A stretch of DNA of 64,000 bases from an uncultured delta proteobacterium (GTDB lineage Bacteria; Desulfobacterota; Binatia; Binatales; Binataceae), in the NCBI GenBank assembly GCA_963711565.1, contig CAVQEQ010000001.1:736001-800000 (forward strand), read 5' to 3'. Of this stretch, positions 1 through 10,904 are shown one piece after another. The notes under the pieces were generated by a model. The model searched no databases and was not told the origin of the DNA. It worked only from the letters and a program-made list of their open reading frames with translations. The position numbers were made by a program, and so were the translations under genes. Numbering within the stretch: the first letter of the stretch is position 1; each line of letters begins with the position of its first letter.

Positions 1-148
1 GATGAGAATCCGCAAATCGTGCTTGGTGTCTGCCGCGCTGCAAAACTTGGAGGACATTGGCTGTAGGTTGCCGGTGTAGCGACTAGCGGGCAGCGGTGTA
101 AATTCGACAAGCCCGCTTCCATCGCGCGTCTGATCCATGTCCCAAAAA

Positions 149-164
149 AGCAACGAGTGTGCCA
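149..164 (-). promoter_or_regulatory. sigma54 -24/-12 promoter for a gene off the left edge
   Basis: Minus strand reads TGGCACACTCGTTGCT, matching the TGGCAC-N5-TTGC consensus. Confidence 0.75.
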
Positions 165-335
165 CGACATCGCTAGCTGACCAGAGGAAAACCCAATATC
201 ACTGCGGTCCTTTCCAGCCGGTTTTTGGCACCCAGAAGCGAGGCCGTCGGTAGAAAATACCCGGTTGCCGGGCTTAGCCAGACGCACAATCAACAAGCAG
301 GCCTTTATTCATTTGTTTTTTCAGCGCTGACCTAA

Positions 336-351
336 GGGCACAGCGATTGCT
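336..351 (+). promoter_or_regulatory. sigma54 promoter
   Basis: GGGCACAGCGATTGCT (GG-N10-GC) upstream of the 479 ORF. Confidence 0.7.
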
Positions 352-478
352 GTTAACCTCTCCGATACCTCGGAGGGTGCGCCACTGGCCGCGATTACCT
401 AACCCTTCTTTTCCTCCTTCCTGCCCGTGGCCATGACGCAACCCTTCGATTTTCAAGAGCAAGCATAGGAGGTCATCT

Positions 479-880
479 ATGAAAATTGTCACCATCATAG
501 CTTTAGCTGCCTGCACCGGAGTCGCACTGGGCTTTATGTCGAGTTGCGCAGACGATCGTACGGTCGAGACGACAACCACCCGTGAAGTCGACACCACAGC
601 GCCGCCCGCGATAGTAACTGCCGCGCCAGTCGTAACCGAGCCAGCAGTCGTAGTGCCTCCAAACGCGAGCACAACGTCTACTACGACTCAGTTCAATAAT
701 GGCACGGTCGAGAAGAAGACGGTGACCGAATATAATCCTGCTTATCCTGAGGTAGTTCCGTCTGCGCCCGTGGTGGTAACTACGGCTCCGCCGGCTCAAT
801 CCACTACAACTCAAACGACAACTACTAATGATGATGGAGACCTGGACCGCCGAACCACTACGACGGTCGTGACTCCGTAG
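479..880 (+). CDS. Thr/Val/Pro-rich putative lipoprotein
   Basis: AGGAGG RBS, signal peptide ending in a lipobox-like MSSC, low-complexity mature region. Confidence 0.75.
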   Translation: MKIVTIIALAACTGVALGFMSSCADDRTVETTTTREVDTTAPPAIVTAAPVVTEPAVVVPPNASTTSTTTQFNNGTVEKKTVTEYNPAYPEVVPSAPVVVTTAPPAQSTTTQTTTTNDDGDLDRRTTTTVVTP

Positions 881-922
881 TACATTCCTTTCGCGCCTCT
901 CCTCACTCAGTCCGAACTAATA

Positions 923-965
923 AGCAACAACCCACGAAGCATAAGATGCGTCGTGGGTTGTTGCT
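923..965. terminator. hairpin between convergent genes, likely bidirectional terminator
   Basis: Perfect 15-bp arms AGCAACAACCCACGA / TCGTGGGTTGTTGCT. Confidence 0.7.
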
Positions 966-985
966 CGATTTCTCTGTTGTCAGAC

Positions 986-1147
986 TCAAAGGATTGCTCT
1001 TCCGGCAATCAGCGACACCACAAACAACACCAGGAATACGAAGAACAGAACCCGCGCAAACTCCGTGGCTGTTCCTGCGATGCCGCCGAATCCTAACGCC
1101 GCGGCAATCACAGCTATCACGAGAAAAACGAGTGCGTAGTATAGCAT
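986..1147 (-). CDS. DUF1328 (UPF0391/YtjA-like) small membrane protein, 53 aa, absent from the ORF track
   Basis: Manual translation [53 protein letters not shown] with LGFGGIAG signature; GGAGG RBS. Confidence 0.92.
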
Positions 1148-1183
1148 TACTCAATGTCCTCCAAGGTTGATGCTGAGTTATTC

Positions 1184-1199
1184 AGCAACGACTATGCCA
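1184..1199 (-). promoter_or_regulatory. sigma54 promoter of the DUF1328 gene
   Basis: Minus strand reads TGGCATAGTCGTTGCT, about 37 bp upstream of the ATG. Confidence 0.75.
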
Positions 1200-1246
1200 C
1201 TGCTAACGCTCCTGAATATGACAGAGCAGGCTACTCCGCAGACGAA

Positions 1247-1609
1247 CTATGCAATATTTACCGTCGTAGCAGCTGTCAGCGATCGCCTTAACACTTCGGC
1301 TGCGACTATCGCACCTACACCTACGAGTCCCAGCACCTGCCAGTACGGCATCCATCGATGAAGCAACAGCACCAGGCTCGCTAGCAGTGCCACTATGCCG
1401 CCCGCGGCGAGCACGATTAACGTTGATGTGAGGTAGACCTGGCCGAGGAGGGTCGTCGCCGCACCGACGACATTCGACTCGAGCAGACGGGCCTCGGCGG
1501 CGACGATCCGGGCGAAGTCCGAGAGAATCCGAACTGCCAGCTCCGGCAATTCGTCCTGCGACTCCCGCTCGATTGTCAGGTCAGACTCGTTCGACTTGAT
1601 CGTGCTCAT
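1247..1609 (-). CDS. YqjE/holin-like (DUF1469-type) two-TM membrane protein
   Basis: Helical N-terminus plus two hydrophobic segments; last gene of a yqjD-like operon. Confidence 0.65.
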   Translation of the reverse strand: MSTIKSNESDLTIERESQDELPELAVRILSDFARIVAAEARLLESNVVGAATTLLGQVYLTSTLIVLAAGGIVALLASLVLLLHRWMPYWQVLGLVGVGAIVAAEVLRRSLTAATTVNIA

Positions 1610-1916
1610 CGACTTTGGCTTCATTCGAAAGCACCAGGGCGGCGCCCAACAGCAACAGCGCTATCATTGCGGCCTCACCCGAGTCCGATCCCAACGCAAA
1701 TCCCAAAGCGCCGGCGACGCACGCCGTAGTGACAGGACGCTTGCGGATTCCGCGGTCCGGGCGGAGCCGAGCGACACCCTCTTCGACGCGGTCGCCAACC
1801 TGATGCATCGCGTCGCGGAGATCCTCCTGGACGCGATCGCCGACCTGATGCAACGCGTCGCGGAGATCCTTGGTGGCGTCTTCCAGTTCATCTTTTGTTT
1901 CGGGGGTGTCTGCCAT
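1581..1916 (-). CDS. DUF883/ElaB/YqjD-like membrane-anchored protein
   Basis: Charged helical N-terminus, IRKRP-x-GALGFALG C-terminal anchor. Confidence 0.65.
   Translation of the reverse strand: MADTPETKDELEDATKDLRDALHQVGDRVQEDLRDAMHQVGDRVEEGVARLRPDRGIRKRPVTTACVAGALGFALGSDSGEAAMIALLLLGAALVLSNEAKVDEHDQVERV
1786..1870. repeat. 45-bp tandem duplication (15-aa repeat DLRDA[L/M]HQVGDRV)
   Basis: 1786-1830 is repeated at 1831-1870 with few mismatches. Confidence 0.85.
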
Positions 1917-2121
1917 TTTTGCCTTTCTTCGAGGTCAGTACCGATGTCAGTCGGTCCCCCAACACGCCCTCGAGCACCATGAGAATGATTTGAAACGATG
2001 TGCGGTTGCTGAGTCCTCCGCCAATAGCGAAGCCGCCGAGCACGGCGAGCGCCAGCGACCGCTCGGGATACTTGGAAATCTTCTCACGCAAGTCGGCGAG
2101 GTCAGACTGTTGCTGCGGCAT
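1888..2121 (-). CDS. small membrane protein of the yqjD-like operon
   Basis: YPERSLALAVLGGFAIGGG anchor motif, tight operon spacing. Confidence 0.65.
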   Translation of the reverse strand: MPQQQSDLADLREKISKYPERSLALAVLGGFAIGGGLSNRTSFQIILMVLEGVLGDRLTSVLTSKKGKNGRHPRNKR

Positions 2122-2126
2122 GATCG

Positions 2127-2336
2127 TTAGCGCCGGGTCACGTGATTGAGGATCCGCGCGGCGATGTAGCCAACCGTGAAGGCGCTGGCAATGGCAATCA
2201 GCGGCTCATCGCGAACGAAGTCCATCAGGGCCGAGTTAACCGACGAAATGTATTCCGTTCCCATCTCGGCAAAATCACTTATTTTTTCGCGCCCCTCGTC
2301 GATCAGACCGTCAACATCTATTTTCGCGGTGCTCAT
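2127..2336 (-). CDS. ElaB/YqjD/DUF883-like small protein
   Basis: FVRDEPLIAIASAFTVGYIAARI C-terminal tail anchor typical of the family. Confidence 0.75.
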   Translation of the reverse strand: MSTAKIDVDGLIDEGREKISDFAEMGTEYISSVNSALMDFVRDEPLIAIASAFTVGYIAARILNHVTRR

Positions 2337-2396
2337 TTTGAAGCCCTTCCCTGATCAGCGAGTTACACACTCGACTGAAGTGTCAATGAATATCCA

Positions 2397-2412
2397 AGCA
2401 AGTTGGCTGCCA
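2397..2412 (-). promoter_or_regulatory. sigma54 promoter of the yqjD-like operon
   Basis: Minus strand reads TGGCAGCCAACTTGCT, about 60 bp upstream of 2336. Confidence 0.72.
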
Positions 2413-2642
2413 CCAACTACCGATGATTTGAAATGGTGCAGGTCTTTTTCTCCGGTGATATCGGTCAAAGTTACAGATTCAAGTCGCGCCGCATCCAGTC
2501 CCTTCAGTTTCTGAAGTTGTGCCGAGCTGCGATACCGGCATTGGAAGAATATTTCCGAGTCGCAATTACAGAGTTCTCGGTTTCTACTGGCCATCGCGCC
2601 AAATAATCCGCATGTAACCGGCAAAAGTCTCTTAGCGCTCGA

Positions 2643-2658
2643 TGGCATAAGGATTGCT
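2643..2658 (+). promoter_or_regulatory. sigma54 promoter
   Basis: TGGCATAAGGATTGCT upstream of the DUF6496 gene. Confidence 0.65.
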
Positions 2659-2902
2659 GGTTACCAGTCAATGCATCTGCGCTTGGAGGTTCACTATGGC
2701 GAATAGACCAGACCCGAATTCTCCCTGCCCATGCGGTTCCGGCAAGCTTTTCCGGCACTGCTGCGGAAAAAGCAGCAAATAAAACCTTCCCCCCTCCGGC
2801 AGGGTCGGAAGCCGTGGCGTCCTCCCCCCGCTAGCGGCTTTCAGGTCCTGCCGGACCTTCTTTAAGTCTGTTGGATTGTTTGATTGGCCAGGAGCGGAGT
2901 CT

Positions 2903-3109
2903 ATGCCCACCAAGAAATCGAGCGGCAGGAAGTATTCGAAAAAAGCCGGCAAAATGGTTGAGCGCGAAATCCATGCAATGAAGCGCGGAAAGCTCAAATC
3001 CGGCCGCTCCGGCAAGAAGGTCAGGAGCCGCAAGCAGGCGATCGCGATTGGCCTCTCCGAAGCTCGGCGCGCTGGCGCAAAGGTTCCACGCGCGAAGTCG
3101 TCGTCCTAG
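2903..3109 (+). CDS. DUF6496 family basic small protein
   Basis: HAMKRGKLKSGRSGKKVRSRKQAIAIGLSEAR signature. Confidence 0.9.
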   Translation: MPTKKSSGRKYSKKAGKMVEREIHAMKRGKLKSGRSGKKVRSRKQAIAIGLSEARRAGAKVPRAKSSS

Positions 3110-3276
3110 CAGTTCGCTCCCCACTCGTTCCGCGACGAGTCGGCATATAGTCTCGCGGCTCGCCCGAACCGCGTGCACAGCGGTTTCGCGAACTCAGTAA
3201 GAACTCCCGCCTGAAAAGTGGATGTCCCCTTGCGACGATCAGTGATTCGGAGCGGTTTAATCACTGCTCTGCCGAT

Positions 3277-3292
3277 TGGCGCGCTTCCTGCT
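3277..3292 (+). promoter_or_regulatory. sigma54 promoter
   Basis: TGGCGCGCTTCCTGCT upstream of the 26-aa ORF and DUF3309 gene. Confidence 0.6.
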
Positions 3293-3357
3293 CATTGAGT
3301 CGTTATCGCTTCATCCTACGACGCGATTTAACGGACACAGACAAGGAGTAGTCGAAG

Positions 3358-3438
3358 ATGCGTTATGCGATAGCCTGGCTTCTTGGAGTTCCTGCCTCGA
3401 TTATTGTGATTTGGTTTGTGCTTGGACATTTGCTTTAG
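3358..3438 (+). CDS. 26-aa single-TM microprotein (WLLGVP type), absent from the ORF track
   Basis: AAGGAG RBS followed by MRYAIAWLLGVPASIIVIWFVLGHLL*. Confidence 0.75.
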   Translation: MRYAIAWLLGVPASIIVIWFVLGHLL

Positions 3439-3501
3439 ACAACCGAATCATCAACCAAGGCCCACTTCTTCTCCAATGCACTTAAATACGAGAGGACCGA
3501 C

Positions 3502-3654
3502 ATGAACCTCATACTCTTAATCGTACTAGTTGTTCTCTTACTCGGCGCACTACCCACATGGCCCTATAGCGCTGAATGGGGTTACTATCCCAGCGGCGCG
3601 CTGGGGACTGTTTTAATCATAGTCTTGGTCCTGGCACTGCTGGGACGAGTGTGA
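3502..3654 (+). CDS. DUF3309 family small membrane protein, 50 aa, absent from the ORF track
   Basis: MNLILLIVLVVLLLGALPTWPYSAEWGYYPSGALGTVLIIVLVLALLGRV with the LP-W-YS-WGYYPSG signature. Confidence 0.92.
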   Translation: MNLILLIVLVVLLLGALPTWPYSAEWGYYPSGALGTVLIIVLVLALLGRV

Positions 3655-3696
3655 CCCCGGAAATTCGAGTCCCGTGGAGAGAGTCGGACGCCGATC

Positions 3697-3930
3697 CTAA
3701 TCTGTTCGGTGGCTCATCGCGATGCCCGCGCCGATTAGCAGGAGACCTAGCGCTATAGCTCCTCCACTAACGATCGGGGGAATAACGTGGGGCTCCTCGG
3801 TCTTTGCTTGCACCTTCAAGTCCCCGAGCCTGACAACGTCTTTGGTTGATTCGGTGTTGAAGTTTGGGGCCGCAAACATAATCAGTCCGATTAGCACGAC
3901 GGCTGCACCCAATATTATGATGCTTTTCAC
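3697..3930 (-). CDS. small two-TM membrane protein (DUF3185-like)
   Basis: TM, then DVVRLGDLKV loop, then IPP-TM; GGAGG RBS before a GTG start. Confidence 0.7.
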   Translation of the reverse strand: MKSIIILGAAVVLIGLIMFAAPNFNTESTKDVVRLGDLKVQAKTEEPHVIPPIVSGGAIALGLLLIGAGIAMSHRTD

Positions 3931-3973
3931 GGTAACGTCCTCCACTCTCTTGATTCTGCCTTTGGGCTAATCG

Positions 3974-3989
3974 AGCAAAGCCTGAGCCA
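3974..3989 (-). promoter_or_regulatory. sigma54 promoter
   Basis: Minus strand reads TGGCTCAGGCTTTGCT. Confidence 0.65.
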
Positions 3990-4153
3990 TCGGACACATC
4001 ATGGTCGTAATGCACAGTTCTGTGCCGTTTATGGCCTCCATTGCTATCTGTTCATCGCCCCGCCGATGAAGGACTTTCTCGGCCACCCGGCAATCTGAAA
4101 ATACTTCACACACGAGCCGCGAAAATCACCCGAGTTGCTCACTATTCGGCGGT

Positions 4154-4169
4154 GGGTATGGCGATTGCT
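4154..4169 (+). promoter_or_regulatory. probable sigma54 promoter
   Basis: GGGTATGGCGATTGCT (GG-N10-GC) about 30 bp before the ATG at 4198. Confidence 0.5.
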
Positions 4170-4197
4170 CTGTTACCTCTGCAGGAGGGACGAGACC

Positions 4198-4491
4198 ATG
4201 AAATTCGCAACAAAAGCGGCTTTATCGACGGCGCTGATAGCCGGCCTCGCAATTGTCGGCCCGGCGCTCTCCTCGAATCGTACGACTTTCAATCAATCAC
4301 CGTCTGCTGCAACAGAAGGTCACATGGTAAGGGCAAGCATCATCAAGGTGCATACCGACCATGGCGTAATTATTCTGCCCGGCACTGCCGACTCGTGGGA
4401 CGCGGTTGAGAACGCGGTGTTCGTCGCCGACAGCATCGCTGATTTTCAGATGGTCAACAACGAAGTTCCCTGGCAGATAGACTATGAATGA
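4198..4491 (+). CDS. secreted, degenerate BON-domain-like protein
   Basis: Signal peptide; IKVHTDHGVIILPG...VNNEV resembles the BON C-terminal half. Confidence 0.6.
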   Translation: MKFATKAALSTALIAGLAIVGPALSSNRTTFNQSPSAATEGHMVRASIIKVHTDHGVIILPGTADSWDAVENAVFVADSIADFQMVNNEVPWQIDYE

Positions 4492-4546
4492 CAGCGTAAG
4501 ATTTTTGCTGTTACCTTAGTCCTTCCATTCTTCCCGACAGCGTCGT

Positions 4547-6484
4547 TTGACCGTCTTCCCTGCGTGGAGAGGCGCCGCCCGAGCTGGGCTCGCGCGCCCA
4601 TTGCTACTCGCGGCGGCGCGGATTAGAAGCAGGTGTTCGGTCCGCGCGGTTACCGACGTGCCAGCAAACCGACTCAGGAAAAGCCTGACCGCTACGATCC
4701 TGGTGCCCAGCATCCTGGTTGGGACGGCGACCGTCGCTCTGCTTTGGGAATTTCACAGTCAGATGTCCGAAACGGGCTGGGTAGAGCATACCGATCGCGT
4801 CGAGCTTCTGGCCGAAACCGCGAAGACTGAATTCCTCTCGGCGCAGGACGCGCTCAGAGGTTTCCTGATTTCTTCGAGTCCTGCCGACCGTGATTCTGTG
4901 CAGGAGCATTGGAACGCGAGCCGACGAATCATCAAGCAACTGGTTGCTCTGGTAGCCGACAATCCCGGCGAGGAAGAGCGCCTGACAAGTCTGAACGACC
5001 TGGAGAATCAATGGCTCGAGGCCGCCAGTGCCGCGGACTCGGCCTCTGCGGATGCCGACAAGCGCGAGCTTGCCCAACGAGCCGCGGCGATCGGTAGCAA
5101 GGCACTGGCTCAGTTCGATACGGTTTCCGGCGCTGAGGAGGAGTTGCGAATTGCCAGAGACTCGCGGCGAGATTTGCAATATCGCGTCGCGCTGTGGGGC
5201 ATCCCAATCGCAGCGTTGATCCTGATCATTGGACTGACGTCAACAGCGTGGAGAGAAATTCGAAGAGCGAGCCACATATTTGCGACGGCGCTGAACGATG
5301 CCGAGCAAGCAAATCAGACGAAAACGAATTTTCTGGCGGTAATCTCCCACGAACTGCGCAACCCCCTCAACTCGATCCTGCTCTGGTGCAACGCGCTGCT
5401 CTCCAGCGGAACACTCGAGGGCAGAATTGAACAGGGCATGAGCGCAATCTTCCGCGCCGCCAAGGCCCAGGCGCAGCTGATCGAGGATCTGTTGGACATC
5501 TCCAGGATCGAGAGTGGTCAGATGCGCTTTAACGTCCAGCCGATCAGTCCCGCCGAGGTCGTGCGGGCGGCCGTTGACAGCATGATTCCCGCGGCTGAAG
5601 CGAAATCGATCGCCGTCCAAACCGTGATCGATCCGCGCGCGAGCATGATCGTTGGCGATTCGCATCGGCTTCAGCAGGCGGTGTGGAATCTGCTCTCGAA
5701 CGCGATCAAGTTCACGCCCAAGGATGGCAAGGTGCAGGTGCGCCTCGAGCGGATCAACTCCCACCTCGAAATTGTGGTCGCCGACAACGGCCAGGGGATC
5801 GACCAGCGCGCGCTCGAAAACGTCTTCGACCGATTCTGGCAGGCCTCAAGAGAGAGCGGCGATCGCGGACTGGGTCTCGGGCTCTCGATCGTCAAGCACA
5901 TCGTGAATCTTCACGGCGGCACCGTCATTGCCCATAGCGACGGTCCGGGAAAGGGAAGTGTTTTTGTGATCCGGCTTCCGGTGCCGGTCACCACGGCCGG
6001 CCTGGAGAGTACCCCGCGGCGCCATCCTACTGTCTCGCCGGTCGCGCAAGGCGCCCGCCTTCAACGGCTCGATGGGATAGCGGTGCTCGCGGTCAACGAC
6101 GATGCGGCGACGCTTCAAGGACTGAGATCCTTGCTCACATCGCTCGGAGCAAGCTGCAAGGAGAGCTGTACAGTTGAGGACGCAATCGCCACCCTGGCTG
6201 AAAAACATCCCGACGTACTCATCTCCGACCTCGGAATGCCGGGCCGCGACGGCTATTCATTGATCAGAGAAATCAGGGAAAAAGAGAAAGCATCGGCGGC
6301 TTCGGCCCATCTTGCGGCTATCGCTCTGACAGCCTACGGCCGCGTCGAAGATAAGGTTGAAATTCTGGCGGCCGGCTTCGATGGCCACGTTGTGAAGCCG
6401 GTCAACCCGGCGGAGCTGGCAGCCGTCATCAAGCGGCTGGTGGAAGCTGGACGCTCGGGTAATTACAAACCAACACCATCATAA
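4547..6484 (+). CDS. hybrid sensor histidine kinase (CHASE3-HisKA-HATPase-REC); start uncertain
   Basis: WVEHT CHASE3 motif, ISHELRNPL H-box, NLLSNAIKFT N-box, GLGLGL G-box, LISDLGMP receiver. Confidence 0.9.
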   Translation: MTVFPAWRGAARAGLARPLLLAAARIRSRCSVRAVTDVPANRLRKSLTATILVPSILVGTATVALLWEFHSQMSETGWVEHTDRVELLAETAKTEFLSAQDALRGFLISSSPADRDSVQEHWNASRRIIKQLVALVADNPGEEERLTSLNDLENQWLEAASAADSASADADKRELAQRAAAIGSKALAQFDTVSGAEEELRIARDSRRDLQYRVALWGIPIAALILIIGLTSTAWREIRRASHIFATALNDAEQANQTKTNFLAVISHELRNPLNSILLWCNALLSSGTLEGRIEQGMSAIFRAAKAQAQLIEDLLDISRIESGQMRFNVQPISPAEVVRAAVDSMIPAAEAKSIAVQTVIDPRASMIVGDSHRLQQAVWNLLSNAIKFTPKDGKVQVRLERINSHLEIVVADNGQGIDQRALENVFDRFWQASRESGDRGLGLGLSIVKHIVNLHGGTVIAHSDGPGKGSVFVIRLPVPVTTAGLESTPRRHPTVSPVAQGARLQRLDGIAVLAVNDDAATLQGLRSLLTSLGASCKESCTVEDAIATLAEKHPDVLISDLGMPGRDGYSLIREIREKEKASAASAHLAAIALTAYGRVEDKVEILAAGFDGHVVKPVNPAELAAVIKRLVEAGRSGNYKPTPS

Positions 6485-6487
6485 GGA

Positions 6488-6904
6488 TTACTGCAGCGGC
6501 TCAGGTTTGCCTTTCGCGATCAATCCGACATGACGCGCGAGCAATTGCCAGTTTCCCTCGCGCTTCGTCCAGACGTTCATGTAGCTAACGAACATTTTGT
6601 ACTCCGCGGTCTCTCCGACCAGCTGAGAAGCTTCGTTGCCGGTGGTGACTACGAGGTCGCCGAAGGTTGCGATTTTTACCGGGCGGCGTTCGTAGGTCCG
6701 CAGCCGGAGCCGTCCCGTTTTTACCATTTCCAGCAGGATCTGTTTTCCCACAATCAGGTTCGCGGTGCTGTTGACGATCAGGTCATCAGCCCACAGCGTC
6801 TGCAGAGTTGAAACATCAGCGGCACGCATCGCGCGCGCTTCCTGCTGTTCCAGCACTTCGATTTCTTTCTGCTGCTCGGCGTTGCGCTCGTCGGCGGTAT
6901 TCAT
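6488..6904 (-). CDS. NTF2-like (DUF4440) protein
   Basis: ADVSTLQTLWADD...NVWTKREGNWQLLARH pattern. Confidence 0.8.
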   Translation of the reverse strand: MNTADERNAEQQKEIEVLEQQEARAMRAADVSTLQTLWADDLIVNSTANLIVGKQILLEMVKTGRLRLRTYERRPVKIATFGDLVVTTGNEASQLVGETAEYKMFVSYMNVWTKREGNWQLLARHVGLIAKGKPEPLQ

Positions 6905-7287
6905 TGTGTCGGCTCCCGCCTGCAGTAGTGACTTACCGTTGTCAGCAGATGATCCACGTCCACCGGTTTGGCTATGATCTCGTCGGCGTCAACGTCGGTC
7001 CGATCGCTCAACGCGGTCACGACGATCACCGGTATCTCCGCCAGCCGTGGATCCTTGACCTGTTCGCTGCGAAATTGCCAGCCGTCCATCACCGGCATCC
7101 ACAGATCGAGAAGGATCAAATCCGGAACCGGCGCCTGACGCAAGTAATCCAGCGCTTCCTTGCCGTTGCCCGCCGGTACAGCTCGATAACCCTTCATCTG
7201 CAAGAGCGCGACCATTGCTTCGCGGGCATCCTCGTCGTCCTCGACGACCAGGATGCGCGCATCTTCTTTTCTCCCGTCGCTCCGCAC
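6901..7287 (-). CDS. single-domain response regulator
   Basis: ILVVEDD, LILLDLWMPVMDG, IAKPV receiver motifs; true start probably near 7287. Confidence 0.88.
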   Translation of the reverse strand: MRSDGRKEDARILVVEDDEDAREAMVALLQMKGYRAVPAGNGKEALDYLRQAPVPDLILLDLWMPVMDGWQFRSEQVKDPRLAEIPVIVVTALSDRTDVDADEIIAKPVDVDHLLTTVSHYCRREPTQ

Positions 7288-7516
7288 GTTTCCAATTATA
7301 TAGGAGGTGGATCTTGCCCGATATCTATTTCCGCCGGGAAGACACATACACGAGCGTCGCGCCGTTTGTTCCCTGAGTAACATTTCGTAGAAGGTCGATT
7401 TCGATCGAGCGGCCTGCTCGTGCACGACGGCTTTCTGGCTCAGGTAAACCTTTCCTGCTTACCGATGCGCAGTTCTGACGCGCCTAAAAACACCATTCAC
7501 TACGAGCTATGTCTTC

Positions 7517-7532
7517 TGGCCCAGATTTTGCT
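7517..7532 (+). promoter_or_regulatory. sigma54 promoter
   Basis: TGGCCCAGATTTTGCT upstream of the MEDS kinase. Confidence 0.65.
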
Positions 7533-7630
7533 GTTACTTTTCTGCGAAACCTCGATTTGCGGTCCCGAATGTATGAGACGTGCGCTTCACGGTAGCCCGG
7601 TGATCGCTCGCGGTTCGCGTATGGTTGCCG

Positions 7631-9835
7631 ATGAGTGCCCAACATTCTCAGCCCAATGGAATTAGCGCGTCATACGTAGCGCCGACTGCATGGAGCAACG
7701 TCAGCCCGCACTCGCATCTGGTTCAATTTTACGAGAATGACGGCTTCCTCATCGACTCGCTGGCCCGTTGGTTCGGCGACGGTCTGGACGCGGGCGACAC
7801 ATGCATCTTCGTCGGTACCGAGGCTCATCGAATCAGCCTCGAGAAATATCTCAAGGATCGCGGCATCGATCTCGACCTGATGCGCGCGCGGCGGCGCTGC
7901 GTTTGCCTCGATGCGGCCTCGACGCTGGCGACGTTCATGGTCGATGGATGGCCCGACGAGGCGAGGTTCGTTCGCACGCTCCAGGAGATTCTCGCCGGCG
8001 TGTCCAGGCAGGGTGACCGGCGGGTATTCGGCGAGATGGTCGCGCTGCTTTGGAAGGATGGAAATCGCCAGGCGGCAATTCGGCTCGAAGAGATATGGAA
8101 CGCGTTCATGAGGACGCACACGCTTTCTTTGTGCTGCGCGTATCCGATCAACAGCTTCGGCACCGACGCCGACGCATCGCTGTTCATGAAAGTCTGCGCG
8201 CAGCATACTCCAGTACTGCCGGCTGAGAGTTACAGCGCGTTAGCCACTCCGGCCGAACGGCTGCGCGCGGTGAGTCTGCTGCAACACAAGGCCAGGACGC
8301 TCGAAGCCGAGAAAGCCGGACGCAAGAAAGCGGAGAAGTCGCTCCAGCGCCGTCAAAAGGAGCTCTCGGATTTCTTCGAGAACGCGGTCGAAGGTCTGCA
8401 ACAGCTCGGCCCTCGGGCGAACATATTGTGGGCCAACCCGGCGCAGCTCAAACTGCTCGGATATTTCGCTGATGAATACATCGGCCATTGGCTCGGCGAA
8501 TTTTACGTCGACCGAAACCGCTTCGACGAATTCTGGGCCCGGCTCATGCGTCGCGAGCTCATCTACGACTTCGGGGCCGCGCTGCGATGCAAGAACGGAT
8601 CGATCAAGCACGTTCTCATCCACTCGAGTGGGCTGTGGGAAGACGGGAAGTTCCTCTATACGCGATGCTTCATTCGCGACGTGACCGAACGCGTCGAGCT
8701 GGAAGACCAGCTTAAGGTCAGGCTCACTGAGCTCGCGCAAGCCGATCAACGCAAGAACGAATTCCTCGCGATGCTCGGTCACGAGCTGCGCAATCCCCTG
8801 TCCGCAGTGCTGGACGCGATCGTCACCGCGCAACTCGACCAGACGCGCCGCGACCGCGCCCTCGCCATAGCGCGCCGCCAGACCGATCAACTGGCCGGAC
8901 TGGTGGACGACCTGCTCGACGTCGGACGGATCACGCAAGACAGGATCGCGCTGAAAAAAGAGCCGCTCCTGGTCGGAAGTATCCTCCGGCAGGTGGTCGA
9001 AGAAGCACACAGCCTGGTCGAGCCCGGCCAGCATCAGTTGTCGGTGATCGTGTCGCCGCAAGCGGAGAACGTCTCAATCGAAGCGGACCCGGCGCGGCTG
9101 CGCCAGGTGATCGCCAACCTCATCCACAACGCGGCCAAGTTCACCCCTCCGGGCGGTCGTATCGAAGTGATGGCTGACCGTAACGACGACGAGGCGGTCT
9201 TCCGCGTGCGCGATTCCGGCGTCGGAATCTCGCCGGACCTGCTGCCGCATATTTTCGGCCTGTTTACCCAGGCCGAGCGTTCGCTCGATCGTTCGCGCGG
9301 CGGGCTGGGGATCGGACTGACTCTTGTCAAGCGGCTCGTCGAGATGCACGGTGGTCGCGTTGAGGCAAAAAGCGAGGGCCTCGGAATGGGCAGCGAGTTC
9401 GAAATTCACTTTCCTATCGTGGCGAATGCTCCTCCGCAAGTGCTTGCGACCGTGCGCCGGCCCCAAGTGGCCACGCGTCTGCGCGTGCTAGTGATCGAAG
9501 ACAACCACGACGCGGCTGAAGCGCTGGCGATGCTGCTCGAGTTGTATGGACACGATGCAACCGTGTTTTCAGATGGGCCAAAGGCGATCGAGGCTGTCCG
9601 CACAGCCGCCTTCGACCTGGCCTTCGTGGACATCGGCTTGCCGGGCATGGATGGTTATGAAGTTGCGCGGCGCATCCGCAAGCTCGCGAACGCGAAACCT
9701 ATGCTGCTGGTAGCGCTTACGGGCTATGGGCAGGATTCTGACAAGCAGCGCGCTCTCGCCGCCGGTTTCGACGAGCATCTGACCAAGCCGGTAAAGATCG
9801 AACGGCTGCAGGCCCTTTTGAAGCGCGCTCGATAA
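7631..9835 (+). CDS. cytoplasmic hybrid histidine kinase MEDS-PAS-HisKA-HATPase-REC
   Basis: HLVQFYE, FGEMVALLW and LCCAYP (MEDS); PAS; LGHELRNPL; DRSRGGLGIGL; VDIGLPGMDG. Confidence 0.92.
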   Translation: MSAQHSQPNGISASYVAPTAWSNVSPHSHLVQFYENDGFLIDSLARWFGDGLDAGDTCIFVGTEAHRISLEKYLKDRGIDLDLMRARRRCVCLDAASTLATFMVDGWPDEARFVRTLQEILAGVSRQGDRRVFGEMVALLWKDGNRQAAIRLEEIWNAFMRTHTLSLCCAYPINSFGTDADASLFMKVCAQHTPVLPAESYSALATPAERLRAVSLLQHKARTLEAEKAGRKKAEKSLQRRQKELSDFFENAVEGLQQLGPRANILWANPAQLKLLGYFADEYIGHWLGEFYVDRNRFDEFWARLMRRELIYDFGAALRCKNGSIKHVLIHSSGLWEDGKFLYTRCFIRDVTERVELEDQLKVRLTELAQADQRKNEFLAMLGHELRNPLSAVLDAIVTAQLDQTRRDRALAIARRQTDQLAGLVDDLLDVGRITQDRIALKKEPLLVGSILRQVVEEAHSLVEPGQHQLSVIVSPQAENVSIEADPARLRQVIANLIHNAAKFTPPGGRIEVMADRNDDEAVFRVRDSGVGISPDLLPHIFGLFTQAERSLDRSRGGLGIGLTLVKRLVEMHGGRVEAKSEGLGMGSEFEIHFPIVANAPPQVLATVRRPQVATRLRVLVIEDNHDAAEALAMLLELYGHDATVFSDGPKAIEAVRTAAFDLAFVDIGLPGMDGYEVARRIRKLANAKPMLLVALTGYGQDSDKQRALAAGFDEHLTKPVKIERLQALLKRAR

Positions 9836-10047
9836 CTGTCCACGCGAGTCTCGCTGCCAAAGCATCGACATTGCTGGTGCCGCCCCCGAAGCTCGCGGAT
9901 TGAAGTGGATCCGCACGCACCCTGACTGCTTGCAGGAACCTGTCGGCGTCTCCGGGCACTCTTTTGAAATTACTACACGTTCGGAATCGTGAAGAAATTC
10001 CTCGCACAATTGGCGAAAACACCTTGCAGATCAGGGGTTTATGTTCG

Positions 10048-10063
10048 TGGCTCCATACTTGCT
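10048..10063 (+). promoter_or_regulatory. sigma54 promoter of csbD
   Basis: TGGCTCCATACTTGCT about 57 bp upstream of the ATG. Confidence 0.7.
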
Positions 10064-10119
10064 GATTAGTTGAGAGTCACCGCGCTAGCTCGGTGAAAAC
10101 CCAATCAGGAGTTCTTCAA

Positions 10120-10317
10120 ATGAATAGCGACCAGATGAAAGGCAAGTTCAAACAGCTCTCAGGCGAGATCAAGCGAAAGTGGGGACAGATCACCGACGAC
10201 GATCTGAAGCAGGCACAGGGCAGCATGGAAAAGCTGGTCGGGAAAATCCAGGAGCGCTCGGGCGATCAGCGCCAGGCGATCGAGGATTGGCTCAGATCGC
10301 AGGGGCTGAACGAGTAA
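10120..10317 (+). CDS. csbD: CsbD/YjbJ family stress protein
   Basis: MNSDQMKGKFKQLSGEIKRKWGQITDDDL...LVGKIQER signature. Confidence 0.92.
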   Translation: MNSDQMKGKFKQLSGEIKRKWGQITDDDLKQAQGSMEKLVGKIQERSGDQRQAIEDWLRSQGLNE

Positions 10318-10377
10318 CGATCCGAAAACGCGGGACGCTTTGCGCATTTTTGGGTTAGAAAAACCAGAGGCGATTTT

Positions 10378-10794
10378 ATGAAGAACAACTACGCATTCAA
10401 ATTAGCAGTACCGGCAATTCTATTCGGACTGGTCCTGTCTGTTCCGTGCTTCGCTCAGGACCAGCCCGCGAGCCAGGATATGAATCAGGCGGGTCAAAAG
10501 ATGGAGCAGGCAGGTTCCAACACCGCGGACGCCGCCAAGGACGCCTATCACGGAACCGCGCGTGCGGTTAAGGACACGACCATCACCGCCCGGGTCAAGA
10601 CGGCTTTGGCAGGCGATAAAAATGTTAAGGCCTCCGCAATACATGTGGACACGGTTGCCGGCGTCGTCACTCTGAACGGCCAGGTTCCGTCGCCAGAAAT
10701 CGCGCAGCATGTCGCGCAACTGGCGGAACAAACCAAAGGCGTCAAAGGCGTGAACAACCAGTTGCTGGTGGCTAGCTCCGAGAGCACCCAATAG
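10378..10794 (+). CDS. BON-domain periplasmic protein (OsmY-like)
   Basis: Signal peptide; DTTITARVKTAL...IHVDTVAGVVTLNG...GVKGVNNQL. Confidence 0.9.
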   Translation: MKNNYAFKLAVPAILFGLVLSVPCFAQDQPASQDMNQAGQKMEQAGSNTADAAKDAYHGTARAVKDTTITARVKTALAGDKNVKASAIHVDTVAGVVTLNGQVPSPEIAQHVAQLAEQTKGVKGVNNQLLVASSESTQ

Positions 10795-10904
10795 GTGAGA
10801 TCCCGGTAATGCGGGTTGTCGCAGATTCGCGTGCTAGTCGCGCGAATCTGTGGACAGCTCCGTTTCGTGGGCACAAGTGTTGATTACAAAGCGCGATTGG
10901 TCCC

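Follow-up and report, generated by a model that had tools for sequence, protein, structure and literature searches.

Three kinds of general stress response are commonly taught, those run by RpoS, SigB, and EcfG. The locus described here raises the question of whether a bacterial lineage may run such a response with sigma54 instead. It is a gene island at positions 149 to 10,900 of a 64,000-nucleotide stretch of DNA from an uncultured member of the Binataceae (positions 736,001 to 800,000 of contig CAVQEQ010000001.1, assembly GCA_963711565.1; below, the window). A prediction made from the letters alone (the original prediction) had noted sigma54-type motifs upstream of genes for CsbD, OsmY, and other stress-type proteins, and proposed that the lineage controls its general stress and desiccation response through RpoN. 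The island promoters are very probably sigma54-dependent, and the island is probably the core of a general stress regulon under sigma54 RNA polymerase and one NtrC-type activator (C1:127587-128954) predicted to bind a box common to these promoters. The observations behind this are the motifs, the box, the gene content, their conservation, and the linkage of the activator gene to stress genes. The genome (G000; contigs C1, C2, C3, and C4) has a completeness of 95%, and relatives of the flanking gene are found in Ca. Binatus or deltaproteobacterial genomes. Gene starts were taken from a simple caller and some may be off.

The ten GG-N10-GC motifs and the GG-N10-GA variant near 10869 that had been claimed were all recovered (11 of 11) with position and strand. 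With the exception of the doubtful 10869 site, which has GA, they carry GG at -24 and GC at -12, 10 nucleotides apart, as in the sigma54 consensus sequence TGGCAC-N5-TTGCW. The strict motif TGGC-N7-TTGC occurred 11 times in the window compared to 2.57 expected, and 0 of 100 shuffles reached 11. The first 10.1 kb contained seven, where the genome-wide density gives 0.55 per 11 kb (P = 1.8e-6). Genome-wide, 36 TGGC-N7-TTGCW sites were intergenic and correctly oriented, compared to 4-11 for spacers of 4, 5, 6, 8, 9, and 10 nucleotides, and only the sigma54 spacing was enriched among such sites. A matrix built from sites outside the island scored nine of the 11 island sites at 12.5-19.5 bits. The site at 4154, with GGT for GGC, scored below 9 bits and was nevertheless kept in four relatives, while the 10869 variant (10869-10884, +; 9.1 bits) is present but weak and without an upstream box, which makes it a doubtful member. 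Contigs with the island occur in two metatranscriptome assemblies; these give neither start, strand, nor level and were not used as evidence.

The motifs were also found to be kept upstream of orthologues, a check that had been proposed. The csbD gene is present in 74 of 121 family genomes. Of the 30 csbD loci with the highest scores, which come from 30 genomes and 9 genera, 25 had GG-N8-TTGC within 130 nucleotides upstream, compared to 0 of 30 on the reverse strand and 0-3 for other spacers. Gene order and promoters of the island recur in most of 17 loci from relatives.

Motif discovery on the csbD promoters of relatives, and inspection by eye of this genome, identified a 13-bp palindrome, KGWAR-N3-YTWCM. 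Using a matrix derived from csbD promoters outside the genus of the window, and a cut-off of at least 8 bits, this box was found at 10 of 11 island promoters, in seven separate intergenic regions since divergent promoters share boxes. It was also found at 8 of 10 stress-type promoters elsewhere, which were picked by the analyst after viewing annotations and sequences, compared to 4 of 48 further sigma54 sites and 79 of 1092 regions taken as background (P = 1.6e-7). The center of the box lies 49-114 nucleotides upstream of the GG, which would fit an activator site expected some 80-150 nucleotides before the transcription start. Genome-wide, 46 of 430 intergenic candidates at the right spacer combined motif and box, compared to 8-17 with other spacers and 19 in the downstream control; therefore perhaps 25-30 of the 46 are real.

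The targets with motif and box extend some 60 kb to the left of the window and include glgX, behind which lie treZ-like, trehalase, and sugar-ABC genes, as well as glgE-treS, pfpI, small lipoprotein-like open reading frames, and an exopolysaccharide cluster. Elsewhere in the genome a second osmY-BON cluster, ku, and a gene for a DksA-type zinc finger were found. The motif of ku lies 394 nucleotides upstream of the gene, and ku was recovered by the genome-wide scan though not chosen beforehand. Thus the marker genes csbD, osmY/BON, DUF1328, pfpI, trehalose/glycogen genes, and ku all carry motif and box, the pattern predicted for a general stress regulon under one regulator. The extended stress region also encodes a 1701-aa hybrid protein with multiple HAMP domains, GAF, kinase, and receiver (locus L102:1107-6209; C1:701-706 kb), which we take to resemble osmosensors of the OsaA/Nik1 type.

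Other strong motifs were seen with and without the box. Two related unannotated proteins at L095:673-1026 and L084:2032-2562 stand behind strong sigma54 motifs, and the L095 box was the best of all promoters scored (17.5 bits). Flp pilin, TadE, and Tad genes (L071, L064, L105; C3:1070261, C3:439642, C1:1097164) have sigma54 motifs without the box, and by this pattern are predicted to be a sigma54 pilus regulon of their own. Strong sigma54 motifs without the box also precede a family of peptides of 57-59 aa that have hydrophobic C-termini and no Pfam match (L070:2180-2564 and L074:2391-2561).

A search for rpoN, rpoS, sigB, and ecfG had been suggested. The genome was found to have a single copy of rpoN and 17 sigma54-activator domains. 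Its 15 sigma70-family proteins are RpoD, one RpoH-like protein, and 13 of the extracytoplasmic function (ECF) type, and none of the 15 reached the RpoS or SigB/F/G cut-offs. Among 61 family genomes, none had RpoS above the TIGR02394 cut-off (the matches listed, at 218-302 bits, were of RpoD length or cut frames) and none had a SigBFG match at E<=1e-45. NepR was likewise not found in this genome; PhyR was not searched for, and the 13 ECF sigma factors were not sorted into ECF groups. The island contained no EcfG-type promoter, GGAAC-N16/17-CGTT, and no other match to the EcfG-, SigB-, or RpoS-like promoter consensus sequences, except for one chance -10 element inside DUF1328. Because RpoS and SigB were not found, and because the stress genes carry conserved motifs and a shared box, Binatus likely runs most of its general stress response by sigma54 and a single activator. 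The proposal of a response run through RpoN is thus supported by the presence of rpoN, the missing RpoS and SigB matches, and the motifs kept before orthologues.

The original prediction suggested that an activator may be encoded elsewhere, and a candidate was indeed found outside the window; it overlooked that the 149(-) promoter is directed at a degenerate paralogue, encoded mostly beyond the left edge and described below. C1:127587-128954 encodes an intact NtrC-type protein with receiver, AAA+ domain, and helix-turn-helix (HTH). The receiver Asp and acidic pocket, Walker A and B, the sensor II Arg, the HTH, and a loop of the GAFTGA type, here GSFTGA, are all present, so that the genome has both rpoN and activators with an intact loop. 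Downstream of the gene lie a histidine kinase gene and then the second osmY cluster. Orthologues were found in 95 of 121 family genomes; 61 genomes hold both this gene and csbD, and in 24 of them the two are no more than 10 kb apart. A copy with 91-93% identity stands between DUF6496 and the ElaB-like operon in 6 of 17 island loci, i.e., in the interval that corresponds to 2412-2643 of the window. None of 13 unrelated activators of this genome had stress-gene neighbors. The C1:127587 protein is therefore the likely activator of the island, with binding to the box and input from kinases as predicted steps. Inspection by eye of the region upstream of its gene (C1:128954-129400) showed two sequences in tandem that resemble the box, but no canonical GG motif, which suggests autoregulation.

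Several observations weigh against this reading. A second csbD, the cluster at C1:583.8-590 kb, a second glgX, and osmY at C4:70 kb lack a convincing motif and box. Three motif-less clusters share a different upstream element of about 90 nucleotides, present in five copies in the genome that are 72-82% alike (C1:587681-587830, C3:159456-159547, C4:70657-70755, C4:71745-71843, and C4:732855-732943). The clusters that it precedes encode small proteins, with the second csbD, an osmY paralogue, and DUF3309-like genes among them, and it possibly marks a second regulon. The DUF2383 and glsB promoters have the motif and no box, and the ten stress-type promoters outside the island were, as said, hand-picked. 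The activator gene is about 600 kb from the island in this genome, and two receiver-less members of the same activator clade are alternative activators. One SpoIIE-type phosphatase and the 13 ECF sigma factors are encoded in the genome. Among relatives, which are not independent of each other, the motif is missing from 5 of the 30 csbD loci, among them all three of genus g27. In a sample of the phylum outside the family the csbD motif was found in forward orientation in 4 of 19 cases, reversed in 4 of 19, and never with the box, i.e., without enrichment. Because the second set of stress-type paralogues lacks motif and box, sigma54 likely drives the main arm and not every stress gene; of the lineage-wide control originally proposed, most of the response is retained and this second set is not.

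The second paralogue set also bears on the alternative that the promoters are sigma54-dependent and serve a narrower programme for the envelope and biofilm or for starvation, with an ECF sigma or another factor in charge of the rest. The targets include many small proteins that are membrane-bound or exported, an exopolysaccharide cluster is among them, control of the cell exterior has been ascribed to sigma54 (PMC3162934), and rpoN2 of Ralstonia is induced in minimal medium (PMC4371752); here and below, statements on published systems refer to the accessible parts of the cited papers. However, cytoplasmic protective genes (csbD, pfpI, glgX, glgE-treS, and ku) also carry motif and box. Moreover, csbD and ytjA (DUF1328) are controlled by RpoS in Salmonella (PMC5437024), and csbD and ku by EcfG in Sphingopyxis (PMC7083833). 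We consider a narrower programme unlikely.

It is less likely still that the promoters are sigma54-dependent and the box is read by another protein, such as a repressor, a bending protein, or a receiver-less member of the activator clade, with the C1:127587 protein as a mere neighbor. Binding of the activator to the box is a prediction, two receiver-less clade members are present in the genome, and the box occurs in just 3 of 13 betaproteobacterial promoters although the activator HTH is nearly identical there. Yet the activator is linked to csbD and the island across the family, the position of the box suits an enhancer, and the two receiver-less genes are found near integrase genes and not near stress genes. 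That the motifs are chance matches to a short pattern in intergenic DNA, which is richer in A and T, or belong to a sigma70-family promoter, is largely refuted by the spacer, strand, and shuffle controls and by the lack of an EcfG- or SigB-like consensus in the island, and is very improbable. The receiver-less genes (L076:5882-6787 and L108:6634-7611; C4:55878-56873 and C2:40630-41619) encode an intact GAFTGA, each lies a few kb from a phage-type integrase gene, and they might be constitutive activators on mobile elements.

With a general stress regulon under sigma54 and the C1:127587 activator as the preferred reading, the response could work as follows. Stress would be sensed by linked kinases, namely the hybrid kinases with CHASE3, MEDS-PAS, or multiple HAMP domains and the kinase encoded next to the activator. 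The signal would be passed on, perhaps by way of the stand-alone receiver, and lead to phosphorylation of the activator. The phosphorylated activator would bind the box 50-115 bp upstream of the -24 element and allow the promoters to be opened, whereby the genes for CsbD, OsmY/BON, DUF1328, PfpI, trehalose and glycogen enzymes, Ku, and exopolysaccharide would be switched on. In part of the genus, an induced degenerate paralogue may well occupy the boxes and damp the response.

This paralogue is the target of the 149(-) motif. The claim that no enhancer-binding protein is encoded in the window holds within the window limits, but the gene behind this motif encodes one; it starts with ATG at window position 57 and crosses the left edge, so that only its 5' end lies in the window (1-57, -). 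The 476-aa protein (C1:734627-736057) has a receiver, an AAA+ domain, and a Fis-type HTH, and is 47% identical to the intact activator. Its receiver is eroded, its loop reads NAFAGA, the sensor II Arg is missing from WPGNVLQL, and Walker B has an Asn, the latter in this genome only. The loop Thr is absent in 15 of 15 orthologues and the sensor II Arg in all 14 that cover it. The paralogue thereby lacks two residues of an active activator, and the sensor II Arg is known for its role in activation. Loss of the GAFTGA Thr mostly abolishes activation (PMC3162934). Compared to five orthologues, the ratio of nonsynonymous to synonymous substitutions (dN/dS) was 0.01-0.07 in the HTH and 0.18-0.36 elsewhere. 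Because the HTH value is as low as that of the intact activator (0.03-0.08), the paralogue is not decaying. Seven of 121 genomes contained it, all from a single genus; some relatives carry it behind a motif and box of its own, and most behind a further stress-type gene. We lean toward the view that it is a feedback repressor, i.e., a stress-induced copy that would bind DNA without activating. In TyrR, DhaR, HupR, and VpsR the GAFTGA loop is likewise altered and the HTH retained (PMC3162934). Those proteins act with sigma70, whereas the Binatus paralogue is a recent duplicate of an intact activator, confined to one genus and placed behind a sigma54 motif and box. The paralogue is frameshifted in three assemblies (L052:10001-11432, L053:10001-11378, and L054:4801-5788), by sequencing error or real loss.

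The 149-164(-) motif of the paralogue (17.2 bits) shares a box (249-261; 9.7 bits) with the divergent motif at 336-351(+). The latter is kept in relatives and precedes a 133-aa Thr/Pro-rich lipoprotein-like open reading frame (479-880, +), syntenic in relatives and without a Pfam match. DUF1328, a YtjA-like small membrane protein (986-1147, -), has a motif at 1184-1199(-) (18.1 bits), also found in the loci of relatives, and a box at 1250-1262 (9.6 bits). The next motif, at 2397-2412(-) (17.1 bits; also in loci of relatives), serves a four-gene operon (1247-2336, -) that encodes a 69-aa ElaB-like protein, a 77-aa product, a weakly YtxH-like protein, and a holin-X-like protein below the cut-off. 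Two weaker boxes (2463-2475 and 2543-2555) lie between it and the divergent motif at 2643-2658(+) (19.5 bits), and it is this interval that holds the intact activator gene in several relatives.

The motifs are oriented toward genes as claimed, but the first open reading frame after 2643(+) encodes a 28-aa SEC-C-motif peptide (2696-2782, +) with a zinc motif and a good ribosome-binding site directly after the promoter, and the first after 3277(+) a 26-aa product. DUF6496, a basic small protein (2903-3109, +), follows the SEC-C peptide. The motif at 3277-3292(+) (12.5 bits), with a box at 3196-3208 (8.3 bits), precedes the 26-aa hydrophobic open reading frame (3358-3438) and DUF3309 (3502-3654), both within 3358-3654(+). 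A small two-helix membrane protein without a Pfam match, found in loci of relatives, is encoded at 3697-3945(-) behind a motif at 3974-3989(-) (14.0 bits), which is also present in those loci. Two boxes (4067-4079 and 4096-4108; 12.1 and 14.9 bits) are common to this promoter and the divergent GGT variant at 4154-4169(+), which precedes a BON-like exported protein below the Pfam cut-off (4198-4491, +).

A CHASE3 hybrid histidine kinase of uncertain start (4547-6484, +) is a candidate input. The opposite strand (6488-7215, -) encodes a DUF4440 protein and the stand-alone receiver (6901-7215), a candidate phosphorelay step. The MEDS-PAS hybrid histidine kinase (7631-9835, +) is both a candidate input and a predicted target, with a motif at 7517-7532(+) (15.7 bits; kept in the relative locus L050) and a box at 7443-7455 (9.3 bits). 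The csbD-osmY motif at 10048-10063(+), kept before csbD of relatives, has two boxes (9965-9977 and 9990-10002; 12.0 and 11.5 bits) and precedes csbD (10120-10317) and the gene for an OsmY-like BON protein (10378-10794), together 10120-10794(+). Pfam supports DUF1328, DUF6496, DUF3309, CsbD, BON, the two hybrid kinases, DUF4440, and the receiver. The family labels originally given thus stand for CsbD, BON, and DUF1328, but the 69-aa "DUF883/ElaB" open reading frame lacks a Pfam match and is assigned by resemblance. Four more strict motifs are found in the rest of the window (45485, 48474, 53911, and 54112); two are intragenic and none is shown with a box.

The target genes osmY, yhbO/pfpI, and those for trehalose and glycogen are shared with known general stress responses, and hybrid kinases with a stand-alone receiver lie near targets in EcfG and RsbK/OsaA-type SigB systems, as here. 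The csbD/yjbJ and ytjA/DUF1328 families are shared with RpoS (PMC5437024) and csbD and ku with EcfG (PMC7083833). In contrast to these systems, control in Binatus would be exerted by a phosphorylated AAA+ activator at an enhancer, and not by sigma availability, anti-sigma switching, or proteolysis. In this it would resemble the NtrC, PspF, Nla28, and DVU3305 regulons, with -24/-12 motifs, an upstream palindromic box, and a receiver-AAA+-HTH activator, which in relatives is divergent from a target promoter. Nla28 of Myxococcus is suggested to belong to a general stress response to starvation (PMC9765219), and DVU3305 of Desulfovibrio, with two operons, is tabled as "general stress response" (PMC4641369). 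However, Nla28 binds 8-bp direct repeats and not a palindrome of the Binatus type, and the accessible parts of these papers give no CsbD/OsmY/trehalose/Ku target set for either regulator. No sigma54-run CsbD/OsmY regulon was found in the literature searched, with subscription journals mostly outside its reach, and Nla28 and DVU3305 were the nearest. A 2025 survey of sigma54 regulons (PMC12316311) does not mention the CsbD, OsmY, ElaB, or YtjA COGs in its text or 11 supplements, and the accessible parts of PMC5979394 and PMC11021371 held nothing relevant to a sigma54-run stress regulon. The component parts are of known kinds, and the wiring appears to be new. If true, sigma54 with an activator would be a fourth way of wiring a general stress response. 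It would give a concrete answer to how one soil lineage without the three known systems may protect itself, and one that specifies the promoters, the box, the activator, and a likely brake.

The best plasmid match of the activator was a Ralstonia protein (45%), whose locus also encodes RpoN2, a second activator that has no receiver, a hybrid kinase, DUF1328, a DUF883-type protein, and YihY. The R. solanacearum pair RSp1667/RSp1668 at rpoN2 belongs to the same clade, with a GSFTGA loop, a near-identical HTH, and similar neighbors; judged by position and motif, RSOE_07635/07640 would be RSp1667/1668. Ralstonia has a second sigma54, unlike Binatus. Pseudomonas aeruginosa has RpoS. Its NtrC-type regulator AlgB (AlgB-KinB-BphP) carries GAFTGA (PMC6932827); in the literature searched, a link of AlgB to DUF1328 and osmY/csbD-like genes was not confirmed, nor was its sigma54 dependence. 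In the accessible part of PMC4676750 no function is assigned to the RSp1667/RSp1668 activators or to RpoN2, whose role is called an intriguing question, and the sigma54 promoter of rpoN2 is RpoN1-dependent in vivo (PMC4371752).

In Cupriavidus campinensis the activator pair is flanked by malQ-glgX-glgB-treS-glgE on one side and by a series of PRC, BON, topoisomerase IB, DUF3008, and DUF3309 genes on the other, and this locus (L242) has 12 motifs at the sigma54 spacing compared to 1-3 at others. Burkholderia arboris has a smaller version of this arrangement. In a FastTree phylogeny of 122 activators, these proteins, those of the Binataceae, and about 20 library representatives grouped apart from other activators (local support 0.987), with poor resolution inside the clade. 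Conversely, a convincing motif was found for about 2 of 18 BON genes on four betaproteobacterial replicons, and none within 300 nucleotides of csbD in B. arboris and Caballeronia. Of the controls, Sinorhizobium gave no motif and Escherichia coli one loose match within upstream sequence. The Binatus box matrix scores betaproteobacterial promoters poorly, and the half-site pattern was found in 3 of 13 (two distinct boxes) compared to 5 of 885 control windows. The cross-phylum claim is weaker, since few promoters there show the box and the motif is missing before many csbD/BON genes. We give even chances to the broad proposal of a fourth class of general stress response that combines sigma54 with one activator subfamily (HTH signature LKTLYN[KR]L), is the main response in the Binataceae, is used in Burkholderiaceae, Rokubacteria, and other soil lineages, explains RpoN2 of Ralstonia, and is shut off in Binatus by a dead activator copy. 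It would offer a testable role for a clade of uncharacterized activators that culturable Betaproteobacteria encode, at the Ralstonia rpoN2 locus among others.

The signature matched at least 122 metagenome stretches, about 80 of which were listed. Among the matches listed, a stress-gene homologue was found in 14 of 42 loci of 5 kb or more, and the upstream motif in 11 of 22 hand-picked stress-type genes (reversed 4, other spacers 2-6); named clade members include Burkholderiales, Rokubacteria, and Acidobacteriota. In metagenome loci L248, L254, L268, L267, and L277 the clade also adjoins genes for DksA-type zinc fingers, with sigma54 motifs, and HSP20 triplets.

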